From an uncultured Bacteroidales bacterium (lineage in GTDB: Bacteria; Bacteroidota; Bacteroidia; Bacteroidales; UBA12077), in NCBI GenBank assembly GCA_964585385.1, contig CAZPDP010000011.1:1086-65085 (forward strand): a stretch of 64,000 bases of DNA, read 5' to 3'. How positions within the stretch are numbered: the first letter of the stretch is position 1; each line of letters opens with the position of its first letter. A program made the position numbers and the translations under genes. Positions 8,537-62,539 of this stretch are shown here, piece after piece. The notes beneath the pieces were generated by a model that saw only the letters and a program-made list of their open reading frames with translations, did no database searches and was not told the DNA's origin.

Positions 8537-9748
8537 CTAAACCAACTTTCTTCCTATATCTTTATCTCCTCTTCCTGATAAATTGATAATGCTTACCTTG
8601 TCTTTTTTTCCTTTAAGCTGTTTCATAGCAAGCGCAAGTGCATGAGAGGATTCTATTGCAGGGATTATACCTTCCAGTTTCGACAGCATTTGAAAAGCTT
8701 CGACTGCCTCTTTATCAGTTACACAAAAATATTCGGCCCTTCCTGTATCTTTCAGATAAGAGTGCTCCGGTCCGACCCCGGGATAATCAAGCCCGGCAGC
8801 CATAGAGTAAGTATCGACCGGATTCATCTCTTCATCAACAAGACAATAGGAATACGTACCCTGAAATACTACCGGACTACCCATTACCAATGTTGATGCG
8901 GTTTTATACAGTATTTCACCTTCACCTCCCCCTTCAGCAGCATAAATTTTAACATCGGAATCATTCAGAAAGCCTGAAAACAATCCGATAGCATTCGAAC
9001 CACCGCCCACACAGGCAAAGATTGAATCAGGCAGTTTCCCTTCCTCTTTTAGGATCTGACTTTTCGCTTCCTCTCCTATTATACTCTGAAAAAACCTGAC
9101 AATTTCAGGATAAGGATGGGGCCCGACAGCAGAACCCAGCAAATAAAACGCATCGGGATTTTCAACATAATATTCAAGAGCTGCATTGATTGCATCCTTT
9201 AAGGTAGCAGTACCCCGGTCTGTGGTCACCACCTCGGCACCAAGCACCTTCATACGGTAAACATTCATCTCTTGTCTTTTGGCATCTTTTTGCCCCATGA
9301 ACACTTTGCATTTCATGCCCATAAGAGCAGCCGCAGTTGCTGTAGCTACCCCATGCTGGCCGGCACCTGTTTCAGCTATTATTTCTTTTGCACCCATATG
9401 TCGGGCAAGAAGAATCTGACCTACTGTATTGTTAATTTTATGAGCTCCGGTGTGATTCAGGTCCTCTCTCTTTAAATATATTCTGGAGCCAACTTCCCTG
9501 GAAAACCTTTCTGAATAATACAGTGGAGAGGGTCTCCCAATATAATGCGTATTGTAATATTTAAGATCTCTCAGAAAATCTGTATTTCCCTTCAGTTCAT
9601 TAAAAGTTTCTGACAAGGAAATCAGTTTATCTTTTAAAATCTCAGGTACATGTGCTCCTCCATAAGGTCCAAAATACCCGTTTTTATAATTTTCCGGATT
9701 GTATTGTAACAATTTTTCTGATTTCGTATTTGCTATATCTGATTTCAT
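8537..9748 (-). CDS. trpB: Tryptophan synthase beta chain, stand-alone copy (TrpB1-type)
   Basis: PLP lysine motif [51 protein letters not shown]. Confidence 0.92.
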   Translation of the reverse strand: MKSDIANTKSEKLLQYNPENYKNGYFGPYGGAHVPEILKDKLISLSETFNELKGNTDFLRDLKYYNTHYIGRPSPLYYSERFSREVGSRIYLKREDLNHTGAHKINNTVGQILLARHMGAKEIIAETGAGQHGVATATAAALMGMKCKVFMGQKDAKRQEMNVYRMKVLGAEVVTTDRGTATLKDAINAALEYYVENPDAFYLLGSAVGPHPYPEIVRFFQSIIGEEAKSQILKEEGKLPDSIFACVGGGSNAIGLFSGFLNDSDVKIYAAEGGGEGEILYKTASTLVMGSPVVFQGTYSYCLVDEEMNPVDTYSMAAGLDYPGVGPEHSYLKDTGRAEYFCVTDKEAVEAFQMLSKLEGIIPAIESSHALALAMKQLKGKKDKVSIINLSGRGDKDIGRKLV

Positions 9749-9760
9749 CGTTTTCTTGTT

Positions 9761-9868
9761 TTAGTGAATTAAATAATCATGAATGTAAAATCGATTTGCC
9801 TGATAGTTAAAACACCTTTGCCAGGGAAATAAAATTTTTTCCCACCATTGTTGAAGTTGCAGATTCAT
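9761..9868 (-). CDS. Second Trp-rich leader ORF upstream of stand-alone trpB (MNLQLQQWWEKILFPWQRCFNYQANRFYIHDYLIH)
   Basis: Hand-translated. WW plus a third W; starts 22 nt after the attenuator U-tract and stops 12 nt before the trpB ATG. Confidence 0.6.
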   Translation of the reverse strand: MNLQLQQWWEKILFPWQRCFNYQANRFYIHDYLIH

Positions 9869-9890
9869 TTTTAATTATTTAGTTGTAAAT

Positions 9891-9926
9891 AAAAAAAAAG
9901 CCGCAGGCTTTCACCTGCGGCTTTTT
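9891..9926 (-). terminator. Attenuator terminator in the trpB leader
   Basis: Minus strand reads AAAAAGCCGCAGG-TGAAAG-CCTGCGGC-TTTTTTTTT. Confidence 0.85.
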
Positions 9927-9946
9927 AAAAACATAAATATTTCAGG

Positions 9947-10015
9947 TTAATTGCCTTTCATTAACTTATTATCTTTAAGCCACCACCAGTTTCTATGTAT
10001 AAATCGTATGATCAT
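9947..10015 (-). CDS. trpL: Trp leader peptide (MIIRFIHRNWWWLKDNKLMKGN)
   Basis: Hand-translated. Three consecutive TGG codons. AGGC..ACCTG at the end of the ORF can pair with CAGGT..GCCT of the terminator, forming an antiterminator. Confidence 0.85.
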   Translation of the reverse strand: MIIRFIHRNWWWLKDNKLMKGN

Positions 10016-10034
10016 ATGTATGTATTGAATGGAG

Positions 10035-10042
10035 CAAATATA
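10035..10042 (-). promoter_or_regulatory. Bacteroidota -7 promoter box for the trpB leader
   Basis: TATATTTG on the minus strand matches TAnnTTTG and lies 19 nt before the leader ATG. Confidence 0.6.
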
Positions 10043-54130: not shown

Positions 54131-55471
54131 CTATTTATGTCTTCCACAGTAAGTTTCAATCATTTCTTGTGCAGGCTCATAGCCATACTCGAGTGCTTTT
54201 TTAAAGTCAGCACAACCTTCAGGAAATTTATTCAGGTTGATTTTTGAAATGCCTCTGTTATAGAATGCCTGGGCATAAGTGCTGTCTAACTGAATAGCCT
54301 GGTTATAATCCTCAATAGCCTCTTCATGATTATTGAGAACTCCCTTTGAAACACCGCGGTAATAAAATGCCTGCTTGTAAGCGGAATCCAGTCCGATAGC
54401 TTTTGAGAACATATCAATGGATTGCTGAATATCATTCAGATTCGCCTTAGTCAGTCCTAACAAATAATATGCTCTTTCGTGTTTCGGAACCAGCTCAATC
54501 GTCTTTTGAAGGTATCTTTCAGCTTCATCAAAAGCACCCAGATGCATTTTTGCAAGTCCCAGATTGAACAATACTTTCTCATTTTCAGGTTCTTTTTTAA
54601 GCACTTTAGAAAAGTCGGTTACCGATTTTCGATATTGCCTGGTTTGAGCATAAGAATGGCCCCTGTAATACAGAGCATCACGGTGCTCCTGTTCGGATTT
54701 GAGAACATTGGAAAAATCCGGTATAGCTTTCTCATACTGCTGAAGTAAAAAATAAAGGTATCCTCTCTGATAATAGAGTTGCTTACTACCTCCTGTCATT
54801 TCAATCAGTTTGGTATAATCATCGATTGCACCTTTATAATCGTTAATTGCTGAACGGGCGTTCACCCTTTGCTGATATACACTCTGGTTATCCATACCCA
54901 GTTGTAATGCCTTCGAATAATCATCTACAGCTTTTTGTTGCTGATCTAATGCTTTATAAGCTGCTCCCCGTTTAAAATAAGCATCTGCAAACGAACTGTC
55001 AATGCGGATAACTTCTGAAAAGTCGTGTATAGCAGACTCATATTCTTTTTGGGAAAGATTAATAAGTCCCTTATGGTAATGAGCGGGTTTAAAGTCTTTA
55101 TTCAGATTCAATGCCTTAACAAAATCTTCTTTCGCTTTTTTTGTATCCCCTAATTCCCTGTATGACAAACCCCTGTAAAAATAAATATGATGTGATGCAG
55201 TATCCAGGGTGATGGCTTTTGAATAATTATCAATTGCTTCCTGGTATTTCCCAAGGGAATCATAGGAAAGACCTCTCCCGACATAGTATGCGGCCTGATC
55301 TTCATCAAACCAAATAGCCCTGTCATATTTTTCAACAGCCAGCGTAAATTGTGAAGAATCGTAATACATTTGTGCTTTCTCATAAGCCATTTCACCAAAT
55401 TTTGGCTTTAACAGAAAAAAAGCTATAATTAATACAATAAGAAAGGCAATAGGATAAATCCACTTTTTCAT
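54131..55471 (-). CDS. Tetratricopeptide repeat protein with an N-terminal membrane anchor
   Basis: More than 10 TPR units such as 'AYYVGRGLSY' and 'AFYNRGISK'. Confidence 0.88.
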   Translation of the reverse strand: MKKWIYPIAFLIVLIIAFFLLKPKFGEMAYEKAQMYYDSSQFTLAVEKYDRAIWFDEDQAAYYVGRGLSYDSLGKYQEAIDNYSKAITLDTASHHIYFYRGLSYRELGDTKKAKEDFVKALNLNKDFKPAHYHKGLINLSQKEYESAIHDFSEVIRIDSSFADAYFKRGAAYKALDQQQKAVDDYSKALQLGMDNQSVYQQRVNARSAINDYKGAIDDYTKLIEMTGGSKQLYYQRGYLYFLLQQYEKAIPDFSNVLKSEQEHRDALYYRGHSYAQTRQYRKSVTDFSKVLKKEPENEKVLFNLGLAKMHLGAFDEAERYLQKTIELVPKHERAYYLLGLTKANLNDIQQSIDMFSKAIGLDSAYKQAFYYRGVSKGVLNNHEEAIEDYNQAIQLDSTYAQAFYNRGISKINLNKFPEGCADFKKALEYGYEPAQEMIETYCGRHK

Positions 55472-55753
55472 AGCATAAAATTTTATGAATAATGCAGGTT
55501 AGTTATACCAACCATGCCAAAGATAAAGAATTAATAAACAAATTGAAACCTGCCTTATACATTTTATCAAGTATTGAGAAACACTAATCAAAATGTACTA
55601 TACAAAAAAAGATCTACAGAGAAAGGACATCCGCAGAATAATGGGTATTGAAAAAAAAAAATAAACAAGTAACCTTATAATTTTAAACTTTTTTTAATCT
55701 TTACTGTTATTCAATAAATTTGATAAAATAGGATGAATTATTCAAATAATTTT

Positions 55754-55761
55754 TATATTTG
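55754..55761 (+). promoter_or_regulatory. -7 promoter box of the trp operon
   Basis: TATATTTG, 19 nt before the first leader ATG. Confidence 0.6.
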
Positions 55762-55780
55762 TACCCATTAAAGAAACCAA

Positions 55781-55837
55781 ATGAAACCCGATACAATTAA
55801 AATATGGTGGCAGCTATTTTTCACGCAAACATCGTGA
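55781..55837 (+). CDS. trpL: trp leader peptide 1 (MKPDTIKIWWQLFFTQTS)
   Basis: Hand-translated. TGG TGG followed by the hairpin CAGCTAT..TCACG/CGTGA..ATAGCTG. Confidence 0.85.
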   Translation: MKPDTIKIWWQLFFTQTS

Positions 55838-55862
55838 GGAAAGATAGCTGTGTAAGAAATTA

Positions 55863-55893
55863 AAAGCTCATCGTACTCACGATGGGCTTTTTT
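55863..55893 (+). terminator. Attenuator terminator 1
   Basis: AAAGCTCATCGT-ACTC-ACGATGGGC-TTTTTT. Its CTCACGATG (55876-55884) is complementary to CATCGTGAG (55830-55838). Confidence 0.85.
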
Positions 55894-55915
55894 CATTTTA
55901 TAAAAACTTTAAACT

Positions 55916-55975
55916 ATGAATGCATTAAGAAACAACTATTGGTGGTGGTCCAAATTCTGCACAAAAACATTGTGA
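55916..55975 (+). CDS. trpL: trp leader peptide 2 (MNALRNNYWWWSKFCTKTL)
   Basis: Hand-translated. TGG TGG TGG. Confidence 0.85.
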   Translation: MNALRNNYWWWSKFCTKTL

Positions 55976-56003
55976 GATAAAAGGCCCATAGTATCTAAAA
56001 TCC

Positions 56004-56035
56004 AAAGCCCATCGCTCTCACGATGGGCTTTTTTT
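56004..56035 (+). terminator. Attenuator terminator 2
   Basis: AAAGCCCATCG-CTCTCA-CGATGGGC-TTTTTTT. Its CTCACGATG (56017-56025) pairs with CATTGTGAG (55968-55976), with one G-U. Confidence 0.85.
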
Positions 56036-56056
56036 GTACCAAAAAATTTTTAAACC

Positions 56057-57451
56057 ATGACAAAAATCCAAACACACACAAAAACAATGCTGGCCGATAT
56101 AACCACTCCTGTCAGCATCTACCTGAAGCTCAGGGATGAATTTCCAAACTCTGTTTTGCTTGAAAGTTCGGACATACATCACCTGGAGAACCGAAACTCT
56201 TACATATGCCTGGAGCCAAGGGCTGATTTTATTGTGAAAGACAACCAGATAATTCAGAAAACTCCTGAAGAAAAGGAGGAAGTTACATCAATAAATGAAC
56301 GGGAACAGGTGGAACAATCTCTTCAATCCTTTATCCAGTCATTTCAATTCTCCGGTAATGGCAATAACCTCAACGGTTTTTTTGGTTATATGGGATTTGA
56401 AGCCGTTCAATTCTTTGATAAAATCTCCTTCAATCCTGAAAAACCCAAGAATGATTTGCCCGTTATTCGTTACCACCTCTACAAATACATTATCTCCATC
56501 AATCACTTTAAAGACCAGCTAACCATAACCGAAAACCTCCTTCCGGGTGAAGATAGTGAGCTAGACAGGCTGAGCTTTCTTATTAAAAACAAACCCCTTT
56601 CGCATTACCCGTTTCAGCAGAACGGAGCAGAAAAAGCCAGCTTATCGGGTAATGAATTCAAATCGATGGTTTCAAAGGCAAAAGACCATTGCCGACGAGG
56701 AGATGTCTATCAACTGGTTCTATCGCGTAGGTTTTCAAAACCATTTAAAGGGGACGAACTCAACGTTTACCGGGCGCTCAGAAGCGTGAACCCCTCTCCT
56801 TACCTCTTCTATTTTGATTACGGGGACTACAAAATATTTGGATCCTCACCCGAAATGCAGCTCAGAACCCAGGAAGACAAAGCTACAATCAACCCTATTG
56901 CAGGTACATTCAGGAGAACAGGCAACGATGCAGAGGATGAAAAACTGGCTTCAAAGCTGTTACAGGACAGAAAAGAAAACGCTGAACACGTCATGCTGGT
57001 AGATCTGGCCCGGAACGACCTGAGCAAAAACGCTACCAATGTAAAGATCACAAAAATGAAAGAAATCCAGTTCTATTCTCATGTTATTCATATCGTCTCA
57101 AGGGTTGAAGGCAAACTGCAAAATGGCGTTTCACCCCTTAAAATCCTGGGCGATACTTTCCCTGCCGGAACACTGACAGGGGCTCCTAAAAATAAAGCGC
57201 TCCAGTTAATTGACCAGTATGAACCCACTCAACGTGGTTTTTATGGCGGTTGCATTGGATTTATTGGTATCCATGGAGAAACCAACCACGCCATCACTAT
57301 ACGGTCATTCCTAAGTATGAAAAACACACTTTATTACCAGGCTGGAGCTGGTATTACCAATGAATCCGAGGAAGAGAAGGAGTTGGAAGAAGTTGACAAT
57401 AAACTGGAAGCCCTCCGGAATGCCATCGAAATTGCAAGTAAAAACCTATAA
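56057..57451 (+). CDS. trpE: Anthranilate synthase component I
   Basis: 'ADITTPVSIYLKLR', 'LLESS', 'GDVYQLVLS', 'NPSPYLF', 'AEHVMLVDLARND', 'FPAGTLTGAPK'. Confidence 0.95.
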   Translation: MTKIQTHTKTMLADITTPVSIYLKLRDEFPNSVLLESSDIHHLENRNSYICLEPRADFIVKDNQIIQKTPEEKEEVTSINEREQVEQSLQSFIQSFQFSGNGNNLNGFFGYMGFEAVQFFDKISFNPEKPKNDLPVIRYHLYKYIISINHFKDQLTITENLLPGEDSELDRLSFLIKNKPLSHYPFQQNGAEKASLSGNEFKSMVSKAKDHCRRGDVYQLVLSRRFSKPFKGDELNVYRALRSVNPSPYLFYFDYGDYKIFGSSPEMQLRTQEDKATINPIAGTFRRTGNDAEDEKLASKLLQDRKENAEHVMLVDLARNDLSKNATNVKITKMKEIQFYSHVIHIVSRVEGKLQNGVSPLKILGDTFPAGTLTGAPKNKALQLIDQYEPTQRGFYGGCIGFIGIHGETNHAITIRSFLSMKNTLYYQAGAGITNESEEEKELEEVDNKLEALRNAIEIASKNL

Positions 57452-57461
57452 ATAAACAACT

Positions 57462-58112
57462 ATGAAAATACTGGTATTAGATAATTATGATTCATTCACT
57501 TATAACCTGGTTCACATACTCCGTCAAATCACAGGGAATACGGTTCAGGTTGCAAGGAACGATGAGATAAGCCTTGAAGAAATTTCTGTGTATGATAAGA
57601 TTCTTCTTTCTCCGGGACCAGGAATACCGGATGAAGCAGGAATTATGAAAACGCTGATTAAAAAATATGCTTCAAGCAAAAGTATCTTAGGCGTATGCCT
57701 TGGTATGCAGGGAATTGCTGAAGTATTCAACAGCAAAATCTATAACATGCATAAGGTTTATCATGGCATTGAATCTGAGATTTCGATAGTAAAACCGGAT
57801 GATACGCTTTTTATGAATCTTCCAGACACCCTGCCGGTCGGCAGATACCATTCCTGGGCAGTGGAGCCTGATTCCCTTTTAGATGAGCTGGAAGTCACAG
57901 CGGTAGACAAGTACGGCATACCTATGGCTATCAGACATCATGATTTTGATGTAAAAGGAGTCCAGTTTCATCCGGAATCTGTAATGACGCCCCATGGAAA
58001 AAAAATGCTTATGAATTGGATGCAGGCTGAGGACCAGGAAATAGTTCTGCCCCAGACCGACAATTCAAAATACAGCATTAAGAATTTGATCAAGGGCCAT
58101 CTATTTTGTTGA
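57462..58112 (+). CDS. trpG: Anthranilate synthase component II (glutamine amidotransferase)
   Basis: 'DNYDSFTYNL', 'SPGPG', 'GVCLG', 'QFHPES'. Confidence 0.95.
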   Translation: MKILVLDNYDSFTYNLVHILRQITGNTVQVARNDEISLEEISVYDKILLSPGPGIPDEAGIMKTLIKKYASSKSILGVCLGMQGIAEVFNSKIYNMHKVYHGIESEISIVKPDDTLFMNLPDTLPVGRYHSWAVEPDSLLDELEVTAVDKYGIPMAIRHHDFDVKGVQFHPESVMTPHGKKMLMNWMQAEDQEIVLPQTDNSKYSIKNLIKGHLFC

Positions 58113-58130
58113 ATCTAAAGTGCTCAAAAA

Positions 58131-59126
58131 ATGAAACAAGTATTAGAAGATTTATACAGGCAACGATATCTAACCAAAGAAGAATCCAAAGATATTCTAA
58201 AAAACTTTGCCAGCGGGTTATACAACCTGTCTCAAATGGCTTCTTTTCTTACGGTATTCCAGATGAGAAATATCACGGTTGAAGAAATGAACGGTTTCAG
58301 GGAAGCCATGCTGGAATTGTGTATTCCTGTTGATTTTGACGGACACAACACCGTCGATATGGCAGGAACGGGCGGGGACGGAAAGGATACTTTTAATATC
58401 TCCACACTGGCCTCATTCATAGTGGCAGGAGCAGGCGCCAAAGTTATCAAGCATGGCAATTACGGGGTCTCTTCATCATGTGGATCATCCAATGTTCTGG
58501 AATACCTGGGTTATACATTTTCAAATAACCCGGATAAACTCAGGAAAGAACTGGATAAAACAGGATTCTGCTTTTTGCACGCCCCGCTTTTTCATCCTGC
58601 TATGAAGAATGTGGCTCCTGTAAGAAAAGACCTGGGAGTAAAAACCTTTTTCAATATGCTGGGACCCCTGGTTAATCCGGGAAATCCTAAAAACCAGCTA
58701 ATTGGCGTATTCAGTCATGAAGTTGCCCGTTTGTACAATTACATCTATCAGAACCTGGATAAAAATTATTCAATCATCCACAGCATGGATGGATACGATG
58801 AGATTTCACTCACTGGAGATACCAGGCTGGAATCTATGGAAGGGAGCTATATGTTGAAACCCGAAGATTTGGGCTTTGAAAAGCAAGAACCAGAAGGAAT
58901 AAGGGGCGGCAACGATGTTCCTTCCTCTGCTAAAATATTCATCAATATTCTTGAAGGTAAAGGTACTGAAGCTCAAAACCAGGTAGCGCTTGCAAATGCT
59001 GCTGTTGCACTGAAAACGGTTTTCCCGGAAAAAAACCTGGAAGAAACCCTGGAAATGGCGAAAAACTCTCTTCACGGAAAAAAAGCCCTGAAAGTTCTAA
59101 ACCAGTTAATGGAGATGCAGGTATGA
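58131..59126 (+). CDS. trpD: Anthranilate phosphoribosyltransferase
   Basis: 'GTGGDGKDTFNIST', 'KHGN', 'FHPAMK', 'DGYDE'. Confidence 0.96.
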   Translation: MKQVLEDLYRQRYLTKEESKDILKNFASGLYNLSQMASFLTVFQMRNITVEEMNGFREAMLELCIPVDFDGHNTVDMAGTGGDGKDTFNISTLASFIVAGAGAKVIKHGNYGVSSSCGSSNVLEYLGYTFSNNPDKLRKELDKTGFCFLHAPLFHPAMKNVAPVRKDLGVKTFFNMLGPLVNPGNPKNQLIGVFSHEVARLYNYIYQNLDKNYSIIHSMDGYDEISLTGDTRLESMEGSYMLKPEDLGFEKQEPEGIRGGNDVPSSAKIFINILEGKGTEAQNQVALANAAVALKTVFPEKNLEETLEMAKNSLHGKKALKVLNQLMEMQV

Positions 59127-59929
59127 GCAATATTCTGGAAAAAATTAGTCAGAAAAAAAGACAAGAAGTATCATTAAGAAAAAAGCATCAGCTAGTGAGC
59201 ATGCTTGAGAACAGCGCCTATTATTCCCGGCCTGCATTTTCTCTGTCAAATCATATCAAAAATAGCAAGCATGGAATTATAGCTGAATTCAAACGCAAAT
59301 CTCCTTCCAGGGGAATAATCAATCCAAATGCAGATATCCGAAAAACTACAAAAGGGTATATTGAATCAGGAGCTACCGCATTATCTGTGCTTACAGATGA
59401 GTATTTTTTTGGAAGTTCTTTGGAAAATTTAAGCATTGCAAGGGAGGAAAATGCCATCCCCATTCTACAAAAGGACTTTATACTGGATACATTCCAAATT
59501 ATGGAAGCCAAAGCTTACGGGGCTGACGCCATTCTATTAATTGCCAGCATTTTGTCTAAAGAGGAAATTCATAATTTAACCGAATTCGCTGTTTCTCTGG
59601 GAATGGAAACCCTACTTGAAATTCACAACCGGGAGGAAGTCGAAAAAATTCCGAAACAGGTGCATCTCATAGGAATAAACAACAGGAATCTTCAAAATTT
59701 TAATGTGAATCAAGAAAATGCTCCGGAACTTCTCAAACATATTCCGGGCCATTATCTCAAAATAGCCGAAAGCGGAATAAGCCATCCGGAACAAGCATTT
59801 AAATTATTGAATAATGGATTTGACGGACTGCTTATCGGGGAAGCTTTTATGAAACATACAAAACCTGATGAAGCATGCAAAAATTTTATAAAGGAATTAG
59901 GATCTTTTGAGAAACAGAAAAATATATAA
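59123..59929 (+). CDS. trpC: Indole-3-glycerol phosphate synthase
   Basis: 'IAEFKRKSPSRG', 'SVLTDEYFFG', 'GINNRNL', 'AESGI'. Confidence 0.95.
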   Translation: MSNILEKISQKKRQEVSLRKKHQLVSMLENSAYYSRPAFSLSNHIKNSKHGIIAEFKRKSPSRGIINPNADIRKTTKGYIESGATALSVLTDEYFFGSSLENLSIAREENAIPILQKDFILDTFQIMEAKAYGADAILLIASILSKEEIHNLTEFAVSLGMETLLEIHNREEVEKIPKQVHLIGINNRNLQNFNVNQENAPELLKHIPGHYLKIAESGISHPEQAFKLLNNGFDGLLIGEAFMKHTKPDEACKNFIKELGSFEKQKNI

Positions 59930-59951
59930 CGAACCAATCAAAAAAAGGAAA

Positions 59952-60611
59952 ATGAAACTAAAAGTATGTGGACTTACCAATGAAAAAAATATACAGGAGA
60001 TTATTAAAAATGCTCATCCGGATTACCTGGGTTTTCTCTTTTATCCAAACTCTTCCCGTTATGTAATCGGACGCCTGGAGCCGGATGATATATCGAATAT
60101 CTCTGGAAACATACAGAAAACGGGAATATTTGTCAACAGCCCGACTAATTGGGTCATGAAACAGGCCGAAAAATATAATCTTTCAGCTCTTCAGTTGCAC
60201 GGAGAAGAAAGTCCGGCCTATTGTGAAAAATTGAAATCTGAAGGCTTTGAAATCATCAAAGTGTTCAAAATAAAAGATGAAATGGATTTTTTAAGGATGT
60301 CATCCTATCTTTCGGTTGCTGATTCTTTTCTTTTTGATACAGCCGGGAAATTCAGGGGAGGAAATGGTATAAAATTCAACTGGAATATTCTGAAAAGCTA
60401 TAAGCATGATATGCCCTACTTTTTGAGCGGCGGTATCCGGCCCGAAGATGCAAATCCCATAAATACTATTCAGGATCCAAGACTTATCGGGATTGATATA
60501 AACAGCGGTTTCGAAATTCAGCCGGGAATAAAAGATCCGGCAAAAGTTCAATCATTTAAAAACAAGATAAACAATGAACAGCATGGAAAAGCAGCAATAC
60601 ACCGCAGATAA
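59952..60611 (+). CDS. trpF: Phosphoribosylanthranilate isomerase
   Basis: 'MKLKVCGLT', 'QLHGEE', 'FLFDT', 'LSGGI', 'IDINSGFE'. Start placed at the ATG at 59952. Confidence 0.93.
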
Positions 60612-61779
60612 AAACGGGTATTACGGAGCATACGGCGGGGCTTTTATTCCCGAGTTGTTATATCCGAATATTGAGGAATTGAAAAACAGTTATCTTGAAA
60701 TTCTTGCAAGCCCTGATTTTCAAAAAGAATTTCAAAATCTGCTTAAAGATTATGTGGGCAGACCCAGTCCTTTATATTATGCTAAAAATCTTTCCAGGTA
60801 TTATAAAAAGCAAGTTTATCTCAAACGGGAAGATTTAAATCATACCGGCGCTCATAAGATCAACAATACAATAGGACAAATTCTGCTGGCGGACAAACTG
60901 GGCAAAGAGCGAATCATTGCAGAGACCGGTGCAGGCCAGCATGGAGTAGCCACGGCAACAGTCTGCGCCCTGATGAAAAAAGAGTGCGTCGTTTACATGG
61001 GCGAGACCGATATGAAGAGGCAGGAAAGCAATGTAGTTCAAATGCAGCTGTTGGGTGCAAAGGTCATACCCGTAAAATCAGGGAATATGACCCTAAAGGA
61101 TGCTACCAATGAAGCCATAAGAGACTGGATCAACAATCCGGAAAGCCATTACATCATCGGGTCTGTAGTCGGGCCCCACCCTTACCCCGATCTTGTAACC
61201 AGATTGCAGTCGGTTATTGGAAAAGAGCTACCTGCGCAATTGATGGAGAAAACAGGCCAATCCTACCCGGATCACATTGTAGCCTGCGTTGGTGGAGGCA
61301 GTAATGCAGCCGGTATTTTTTACCCGTTCTATGATAATCCTGATGTCCGTTTACATGCCGTGGAAGCCTCCGGCAAAGGAATCAACAGCGGTATGACGGC
61401 TTCCACTATTAAAAAAGGAACAGCCGGCATTCTTCATGGAAGCAGAACGCTTGTTATGCAAAACGAAGACGGACAAATTACCGAGCCTTACTCTATTTCA
61501 GCCGGCCTGGACTACCCGGGTATCGGACCTGCTTATCCGCATCTTTTTGAAACCAGCAGGGTATCCTTTTCAGAAGCAACCGATGATGAAGCCCTGGAAG
61601 CAGCTAAAATCTGCATGCGGGAAGAAGGTATCTTTCCGGCCCTGGAATCAGCTCATGCCCTGGCTGCGCTCAAAAAGATCGAAACAAAGCCTAATGAGAT
61701 TCTTGTGCTGAATCTTTCAGGCAGAGGCAATAAAGATTTGGAAACCTATAAAAAGCATCTTCACAATGAACAGAATTGA
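60574..61779 (+). CDS. trpB: Tryptophan synthase beta chain (operon copy)
   Basis: [42 protein letters not shown]. Confidence 0.96.
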
Positions 61780-62539
61780 TCAACTCTTTCAAACCAAAAA
61801 GCACAATATCTTATCGGTCTTCTTTACGGCAGGGTACCCGACAATAGAAGACAATCCAAAAATTATAAAATCCCTGGCTGAATCCGGGGTCGATATGATT
61901 GAGATAGGTATGCCGTTTTCCGACCCAATGGCTGATGGTCCGGTTATACAGGAAAGCAATAAAAGGGCGCTGGAGAATGGAATGAATCTTTCCCTGCTCT
62001 TTCAGCAATTGCAGGAATTACGAGAAATAACGGACATACCCGTTTTGCTCATGGGTTACCTCAATCCCGTTATTCATTATGGGATAGAAAAATTTTGCAA
62101 CAAATGCAGGGAAGCCGGAATCGATGGAGTTATTCTACCTGACTTACCTGTAGAGGTTTACCAGCAAAGCTATAAAAAGCATTTTGCTGAAAACAACCTG
62201 CACAACATCTTCCTTGTGGCTCCTACCACTAGTAAAGAAAGACTGAATAAAATCCTCCCGGAAGCCGGTGGATTTGTTTACATGGTTTCTTCGAGCTCCA
62301 CCACAGGTACCCAAAAAAATTCCGGCAGTCAGCTTGACTATGTGCACACATTAAAAGAAATCCGCGAGGACATCCCGGTAATGGTAGGGTTCGGGATTAA
62401 CAGCCGGGAAAAATTTCAACAGGTTTGCGAAAAAGCGGAAGGAGGAATTATTGGTTCAGCCTTTGTTAGAGCCCTGGAAAATGAAAACGGAGCTATTGAG
62501 AGCCGGATTCGCTCGTTTATCGAATCGATTAAAACCTGA
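61766..62539 (+). CDS. trpA: Tryptophan synthase alpha chain
   Basis: 'FTAGYP', '[17 protein letters not shown]', 'LMGYLNP', 'VGFGI'. Confidence 0.96.

Follow-up and report, generated by a model that had tools for sequence, protein, structure and literature searches.

Upstream of the tryptophan-synthesis operon trpEGDCFBA of an uncultured Bacteroidales bacterium, we identified two complete Trp leader-peptide attenuators arranged in tandem. The reading that we favour, with a probability of roughly 75%, is that one promoter gives rise to a leader transcript carrying two independent ribosome-mediated Trp attenuators in series before trpE. The sequence analysed (hereafter the window) is a 64,000-nucleotide (nt) stretch, and both units lie on its plus strand within a 585-nt intergenic gap, bounded on one side by a divergent minus-strand gene for a TPR protein (54131–55471) and on the other by trpE, which starts at 56057. 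The two sensor-plus-terminator units share one 5′ leader, in the same orientation and with no gene in between. At the sequence level, the analysis established their anatomy, conservation and covariation, and their membership of a shared attenuator family. An initial annotation of the window had proposed two complete attenuators in series, each with its own antiterminator overlapping the leader stop codon, and all of the elements that it listed are in place.

In unit 1, the leader open reading frame (ORF; 55781–55837) encodes MKPDTIKIWWQLFFTQTS, with two adjacent Trp codons (WW, 55805–55810) and a TGA stop at 55835–55837. A hairpin that we term P1, the counterpart of the classical 1:2 hairpin, begins directly after the Trp codons (55811–55850; predicted −17.1 kcal/mol), with both the stop codon and the antiterminator strand inside it, and appears in the minimum free energy (MFE) and centroid folds. 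The antiterminator 5′ strand, CATCGTGAG (55830–55838), contains the stop codon and is the exact reverse complement of CTCACGATG (55876–55884), which comprises three loop bases and six bases of the terminator 3′ arm; the resulting 9 base pairs (bp) give a duplex of −12.7 kcal/mol. Terminator 1 (55862–55893), AAAAGCTCATCGT-ACTC-ACGATGGGCTTTT followed by a T-run (55888–55893), has stems at 55866–55874 and 55879–55887, extendable to 55862–55891, and a hairpin energy of −16.2 kcal/mol.

Unit 2 repeats this plan. Its leader ORF (55916–55975) encodes MNALRNNYWWWSKFCTKTL, with three Trp codons (WWW, 55940–55948) and a TGA stop at 55973–55975. The local P1 hairpin (55956–55977, −4.5 kcal/mol) sequesters the antiterminator strand and is extended in the free RNA by outer pairs (55913–55918 with 55987–55992, and 55947–55950 with 55983–55986). 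The antiterminator 5′ strand, CATTGTGAGA (55968–55977), again contains the stop codon and pairs with TCTCACGATG (56016–56025) over 10 bp, including one G-U, with a duplex energy of −12.5 kcal/mol. Terminator 2 (56004–56035), AAAGCCCATCG-CTCTCA-CGATGGGCTTT followed by a T-run (56029–56035), forms a −17.1 kcal/mol hairpin with stems at 56007–56014 and 56021–56028, extendable to 56004–56031.

The arrangement stands well clear of chance. Both hairpins were recovered by a terminator scan (13 and 11 pairs), which found 4 sites against 0.5 ± 0.8 in shuffles, or 0.5 shuffled sites per kb, and the 287-nt leader folded with a z-score of −6.4 relative to shuffles. The terminator motif CATCGNNCTCACGATGRGC occurred on the plus strand of the 64 kb at these two sites only (0.04 expected), and the short ORFs in the window with TGGTGG and a downstream terminator were leaders 1 and 2 plus one on the opposite strand, near 10000. 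Aligned with each other, the units share about 60% identity (89 identical columns; z = 11.9 against shuffles). The two terminators have an identical 21-nt stretch in common (CTCACGATGGGCTTTTTT preceded by CATCG), as might be expected from a mobile repeated terminator element, an assembly duplication or chance resemblance. However, a mobile or dispersed element was rejected because the motif is confined to the two terminators in 64 kb, and an assembly artefact was rejected because the units are merely about 60% identical and the same protein and locus are present on four independent contigs. With the tandem arrangement also kept in relatives, we regard the probability of any of these three origins as negligible.

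Using TrpE, we gathered 80 loci from Genome Taxonomy Database (GTDB) species genomes and 80 metagenome loci, the window's own genome not being among them, and located units with a script that looks for a terminator downstream of short ORFs in which Trp codons cluster. By this heuristic, 111 of the 156 usable loci had one unit, 22 had two and 23 had none, some of the last group containing units by covariance model. A single leader is thus the normal condition, as the initial annotation had held, and the search that it suggested for paired Trp leaders upstream of trpE in Bacteroidota found the tandem both in the closest relatives and in a second clade. The 22 tandem loci represent 5 distinct sequences in the window's own clade (clade A) and 15 in Prolixibacteraceae-like genomes (clade B), the latter including Prolixibacter denitrificans, Maribellus maritimus, metagenome-assembled genomes (MAGs) of Draconibacterium, Mariniphaga and Prolixibacteraceae, and others. 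The nearest relatives by TrpE identity were an uncultured Bacteroidales MAG (L001, 70%) and metagenome contigs (72–73% and 60%), and all four distinct closest relatives showing any upstream attenuator have two units. Clade A (the window, L082/L083, L081, L001 and L084/L085) carries two units of the same type at each locus, with terminators of the form GCYCATCG..CTCACGRTGRGC. Homologues of leader 1 (IWWWLFFTRIS and similar) occupy the equivalent position in L082, L081, L001 and L084, as do homologues of leader 2 (NNWWWLKFCTNTL and similar). In clade B, the trpE-proximal unit is of the clade A type and the first unit is of a different type.

The initial annotation had also raised the possibility of two response thresholds, set by two versus three Trp codons. 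This did not hold up in the relatives: both units of L082, L081 and L001 have WWW, the WW/WWW difference is limited to the window and L084, and the WW of unit 1 in the window reflects a local TGG-to-CAG change. WW in unit 1 is therefore not a conserved design, and a designed pair of thresholds is unlikely.

Membership of a common family was assessed with a covariance model, R1, built from 32 units (clade B unit 2 and single-unit Bacteroidales loci) and containing no clade A sequence. The top two R1 matches in the window were the two units, with 62.1 bits for unit 2, 59.6 bits for unit 1 and E values of about 1e-10. Across the 160 loci, R1 gave two matches per locus in clade A only and one elsewhere, always just upstream of trpE and on the coding strand, with double matches scoring 66 and 59.9 bits in L001, 68.5 and 59.1 in L081, 61.3 and 54.3 in L082, and 51.2 and 50.6 in L084. 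A match at 2263–2370 on the minus strand of the window was discarded as an ordinary gene-end terminator with no Trp codons. The existing Rfam family for this function, RF01692 (Bacteroid-trp), aligned to unit 2 (28.9 bits) and unit 1 (24.1 bits) on the right strand and in register with the Trp codons, with both scores below the gathering score of 49, which was reached nowhere in the whole window nor in 20 related trpE leaders. Because of these low scores, standard annotation would miss these attenuators. Beyond its seed group, RF01692 seems to be too narrow a model for most Bacteroidota, and the models built here could serve to annotate attenuators invisible to Rfam annotation.

Pairing between the stop-codon stretch and the terminator, which the initial annotation had read from this one sequence, is supported by compensatory changes across 51 units aligned with MAFFT. 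In the 10-pair antiterminator helix, 76% of cells were paired, compared with 28–39% when the 3′ partner was slid by 1–3 columns, and 34 cells were altered on both sides, compared with 14 ± 3.4 in shuffles (0 of 500 shuffles reached 34). Covarying columns included CG/UA at 46:138 and GC/AU at 51:132 and 53:130. Among individual units, ACCGUGA:UCACGGU contrasts with AUCGUGAA:UUCACGAU in L041, and further compensatory combinations were GUAAG:CUUAC (L084 unit 2, L059 and L141), ACCGAGAGU:ACUCUCGGU (L047) and AGCGUGAA:UUCACGUU (L001 unit 1). The terminator helix was 98% paired over the 51 units, and 8 of its 12 pairs changed on both sides. Within clade A, RNAalifold recovered P1 and the terminator from the five unit-1 sequences, with a few compensatory pairs, and likewise from the five unit-2 sequences, with two pairs altered on both sides. 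At several clade B loci, the reading frame passes through the conserved CGTGA and stops 12 nt further on, showing that it is the RNA element that is conserved, not the stop codon as such.

We then folded each unit with a 30-nt ribosome mask placed on the Trp codons or on the stop codon, the mask position being accurate to about 1 nt. With the mask on the Trp codons of unit 1, the antiterminator was the MFE structure (−22.1 kcal/mol compared with −20.9 kcal/mol for the terminator), and an inner helix, GAUAGCU:AGCUC-AUC, tied up the terminator 5′ arm. With the mask on the stop codon, the terminator formed in either unit. In transcripts of both units ending before the 3′ arm, the stop-codon stretch was already paired with the loop (GUGAG:CUCAC), and in a truncated unit 2 transcript with a stalled ribosome, GUGAGA:UCUCAC paired ahead of the 3′ arm. 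As loop pairing precedes the 3′ arm, the antiterminator has a kinetic head start. By computation, antiterminator and terminator are mutually exclusive in both units, with the availability of the antiterminator set by ribosome position.

Several results weigh against two working attenuators in series. Folding with the ribosome footprint constrained, a check proposed in the initial annotation, agreed with expectation for unit 1 and for the terminators under the stop-codon mask. It did not do so for unit 2, where, with the Trp codons masked, the terminator stayed favoured at equilibrium (about −22 compared with −15 kcal/mol); antitermination there must therefore be kinetic. Kinetic antitermination is the accepted view for the trp attenuator of E. 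coli. In the present units the antiterminator strand is similar to the terminator 5′ arm and rivals it for the loop and 3′ arm; in kinetic terms, this loop/3′-arm geometry is less straightforward than the 2:3 arrangement of classical attenuators. Comparing duplex energies of cognate and non-cognate partners across the region from Trp codons to terminator gave a weakly positive and noisy result (mean z of −0.7 for the 3′ half and −1.2 for the 5′ half), since a foreign terminator that is rich in GC will bind to anything; we used column-wise counts instead. In leader 1 of L001 (1290–1352), the stretch from promoter box to WWW lacks an in-frame ATG, and a TTG start would be needed (LKQNYKNIWWWQFLFTRKA). 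In L086, whose TrpE is 60% identical, the available upstream sequence of 281 nt (1–281) showed neither a leader ORF nor an attenuator. Finally, the case for a single promoter draws on a consensus scan that found no TAnnTTTG, the Bacteroidota −7 motif, on the plus strand at 55762–56056, and consensus promoter prediction is weak in Bacteroidota.

The absence of this motif bears on whether the units might be separate transcription units, with a promoter belonging to unit 2 and the attenuators acting in parallel rather than in series. A sigma-70-like match lies within unit 2 (55972–56001), and Bacteroidota promoters are hard to predict; the sigma-70 consensus, however, is not the Bacteroidota promoter type. 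The distance from the terminator 1 stem to the ATG of leader 2 is 28 nt including the U-tract (median 26.5 nt over the 22 tandem loci), which is too short for a promoter and 5′ untranslated region unless the promoter overlaps terminator 1, and leaves no room for a promoter outside unit 1. A search with the Bacteroidota −7 consensus, a kind of scan that cannot by itself prove a promoter absent, gave no internal promoter between the units, and we consider separate transcription very unlikely. For the shared promoter of the serial arrangement, the candidate −7 box is TATATTTG (55754–55761), which matches the consensus TAnnTTTG, as does a second candidate, TAAATTTG, at 55715–55722. The motif by itself is not enriched in the window (83 seen, 77 expected), so the promoter box is a consensus match only. 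The AATTTTTATATTTG-N19-ATG layout found at unit 1 recurs before a Trp leader upstream of a second trpB gene (trpB2; 10042–10035, minus strand), which supports 55754–55761 as the promoter box.

Should both units work in series, each would operate as follows. A ribosome would translate the short leader ORF. When charged tRNA-Trp is plentiful, it would reach the stop codon and cover the antiterminator strand; after ribosome release this strand would be sequestered again in the local P1, and with P1 re-formed the terminator would form and transcription would end near 55893 or 56035. A ribosome stalled on the Trp codons would instead cover the 5′ strand of P1 and free the stop-codon stretch, which would pair first with the terminator loop (CUCAC) and then zip into the emerging 3′ arm, with the second helix in unit 1 retaining the 5′ arm. 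The terminator would be prevented, and polymerase would read on. As read-through to trpE would need antitermination at both units, the two probabilities would multiply, which may give lower basal expression and a steeper and wider response; as the initial annotation proposed, the tandem might conceivably also stand in for a repressor. Co-transcription of the units, their response to Trp and the multiplicative effect are what we infer from this arrangement.

A simpler possibility is that the trpE-proximal unit alone regulates, unit 1 being a redundant or decaying duplicate with little effect. The loss of one Trp codon from unit 1 of the window, where L082, L081 and L001 have WWW, and the missing ATG of leader 1 in L001 would fit such decay. 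First units can indeed decay in the other tandem clade, where those of L019, L021, L064 and L133 are degenerate: these keep the Trp codons and a long hairpin and have no separate terminator, which suggests that the first attenuator was lost or remodelled in some lineages. In clade A, however, the unit 1 ORF, Trp run, P1, antiterminator complementarity and strong terminator are kept in five of five sequences despite TrpE identities of 60–73%. Unit 1 scores as high as unit 2 with R1 and shows compensatory changes among its sequences, and a −16 kcal/mol terminator with a T6 run is bound to have consequences in a 5′ leader. We therefore think it unlikely that unit 1 is idle.

As to the origin of the serial attenuators, the alignment z of clade A unit 1 was 10.8 against clade A unit 2, 8.6 against clade B unit 2 and 7.8 against other Bacteroidales single units, whereas the clade B first unit was unrelated to all other unit types (z of 2.4–3.8). 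Because unit 1 and unit 2 each group across species, the simplest history suggested by these sequences is a duplication in the clade A ancestor. The different type of the clade B first unit indicates that the tandem arrangement probably arose twice in the phylum, in clade B independently. Given L086, with no attenuator in the upstream sequence available, and the degenerate first units, the arrangement has been both acquired and lost in the course of evolution.

The clade B first unit has a leader that reads ..NTIWLPWWGLLT, a terminator of the form CCTGCTCCT..AGAGCAGG and an antiterminator, UUAGGAG, that pairs with the 5′ arm and loop. It was found 200–450 nt upstream of trpE at L003, L024, L026, L034, L041, L046, L048, L050, L051, L070, L093, L108, L110, L113 and L114, with almost invariant nucleotides across genera. 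The 5′ arm of a long hairpin (ACAAUAUGGCU...AGCCAUAUUGGU), after which comes a U-run, contains the Trp codons of this unit. Since conservation of this unit extends far beyond the needs of a Trp run, a peptide-level or additional RNA-level function is possible. In Chitinophaga, as in the two units of the window, the antiterminator strand is similar to the terminator 5′ arm and pairs with the loop and 3′ arm (CGCTGTGTA with TACACAGCG), and other Chitinophagaceae have the classical geometry (CGGGGC with GCCCCG).

The conservation of NTIWLPWWGLLT in Prolixibacteraceae-like genomes also lends itself to a different view of first units, namely that unit 1 mainly encodes a small terminated trans-acting RNA, a peptide or both, as with Sinorhizobium rnTrpL/peTrpL, and that its position before the trp operon is secondary. 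Attenuator-derived small RNAs and leader peptides with trans functions are documented (PMC6614838, PMC7298713). However, our analysis indicated no target for a trans-acting unit 1 product, and the unit 1 peptide of clade A is only moderately conserved. We judge that a trans-acting role is quite unlikely to be the main function of unit 1; it would in any case be compatible with serial attenuation, since terminator 1 would still gate the operon.

The operon downstream of the two attenuators spans 56057–62539 on the plus strand and consists of trpE (56057–57451), trpG (57462–58112), trpD (58131–59126), trpC (59123–59929), trpF (59907–60611), trpB (60574–61779) and trpA (61766–62539). These genes were taken from the ORF list and compared with NCBIfam, where each matches models of its own family; curated cut-offs were passed by TrpD, TrpC, TrpB, TrpA and, with a subfamily model, TrpG, and TrpE and TrpF fell below theirs.

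A third Trp leader attenuator in the window (9761–10042, minus strand) precedes the stand-alone trpB2 (8537–9748, minus strand; TIGR00263, 534 bits). All of its elements are on the minus strand: a −7 box that matches the consensus (TATATTTG, 10042–10035), a leader ORF (MIIRFIHRNWWWLKDNKLMKGN, 10015–9947) and a terminator (9926–9895) plus T-run. R1 matched this attenuator with 39 bits (E of 5e-6). It is followed by a 35-codon upstream ORF with WW (9868–9761, minus strand; MNLQLQQWWEKILFPW...), which lacks a separate terminator and whose end lies 12 nt upstream of the trpB ATG; this ORF is a candidate for a second, translational control.

The units described here follow the logic of the E. coli trpL attenuator. 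In both, neighbouring Trp codons in a short ORF are accompanied by a sequestering or pause hairpin, the antiterminator and an intrinsic terminator exclude each other, the position of the ribosome determines the fold, and the genes controlled are trpE and those after it. The present units differ in that there are two complete serial units instead of one, in that the stop codon lies within the antiterminator strand, whose pairing partner is the terminator loop and 3′ arm where trpL uses the 5′ arm, and in that no sequence similarity exists. Unlike the E. coli leader, those here showed no Shine-Dalgarno-type context, as is usual in Bacteroidota. RF01692 is likewise a Trp-codon leader upstream of trp genes in Bacteroidota and is a single-unit family (Weinberg et al. 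2010, PMC2864571), with no tandem noted in Table 1 of the paper.

The closest analogue is the tandem T-box. Tandem and triple T-boxes are documented on Bacillota trp operons (PMC12452182; Gutierrez-Preciado et al. 2007 as cited there), and they too arrange, within a trp operon leader, serial units that are complete, sense tRNA-Trp charging and have separate terminators, so that two would be expected to have a multiplicative effect. In T-boxes, however, the RNA binds uncharged tRNA directly, with no translating ribosome, and they belong to another phylum and share no homology with the present units. The leader ORFs of Salmonella mgtCBR respond to different signals. We found no second signal in the leaders described here when comparing loci: Trp runs are present in both ORFs, and conservation extends to no other repeated codon. 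As in the trp leader, the mRNA leader of mgtCBR contains two short ORFs, and their translation governs whether transcription proceeds into the coding region, but those ORFs act on particular stem-loops of one long leader (PMC3641672). The two trp units, by contrast, are alike, and each is equipped with a Trp run and an intrinsic terminator.

Full-text literature searches did not return a tandem Trp leader-peptide attenuator, although an earlier mention in older comparative work is possible. The impression in the initial annotation that such a tandem is undescribed therefore appears correct, with the tandem logic known for a different sensor in T-boxes. The arrangement is real and conserved, and it appears to be a variant of a textbook mechanism that has not been described before. 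More tentatively, and with the odds somewhat against so broad a claim, homotypic tandem leader-peptide attenuators may be a recurrent solution in Bacteroidota. They would have arisen at least twice, by duplication of a Bacteroidales-type unit in clade A and by addition of a structurally different first unit in Prolixibacteraceae-like genomes, and would act as a two-stage AND gate that provides switch-like, very low-leak Trp control where attenuation alone is relied on. The tandem would then be the first example from nature in which two ribosome-mediated attenuators serving a single amino acid are placed in series. Because cultured carriers exist (Prolixibacter denitrificans DSM 27267 and Maribellus maritimus 5E3), the idea is directly testable. 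Ribosome-mediated attenuation is always drawn with one leader, and a conserved natural tandem would show that its range and steepness can be tuned by serial duplication, as is already known for riboswitches and T-boxes. It would also offer a handle on the coordination of transcription and translation in Bacteroidota, where this has been little studied.

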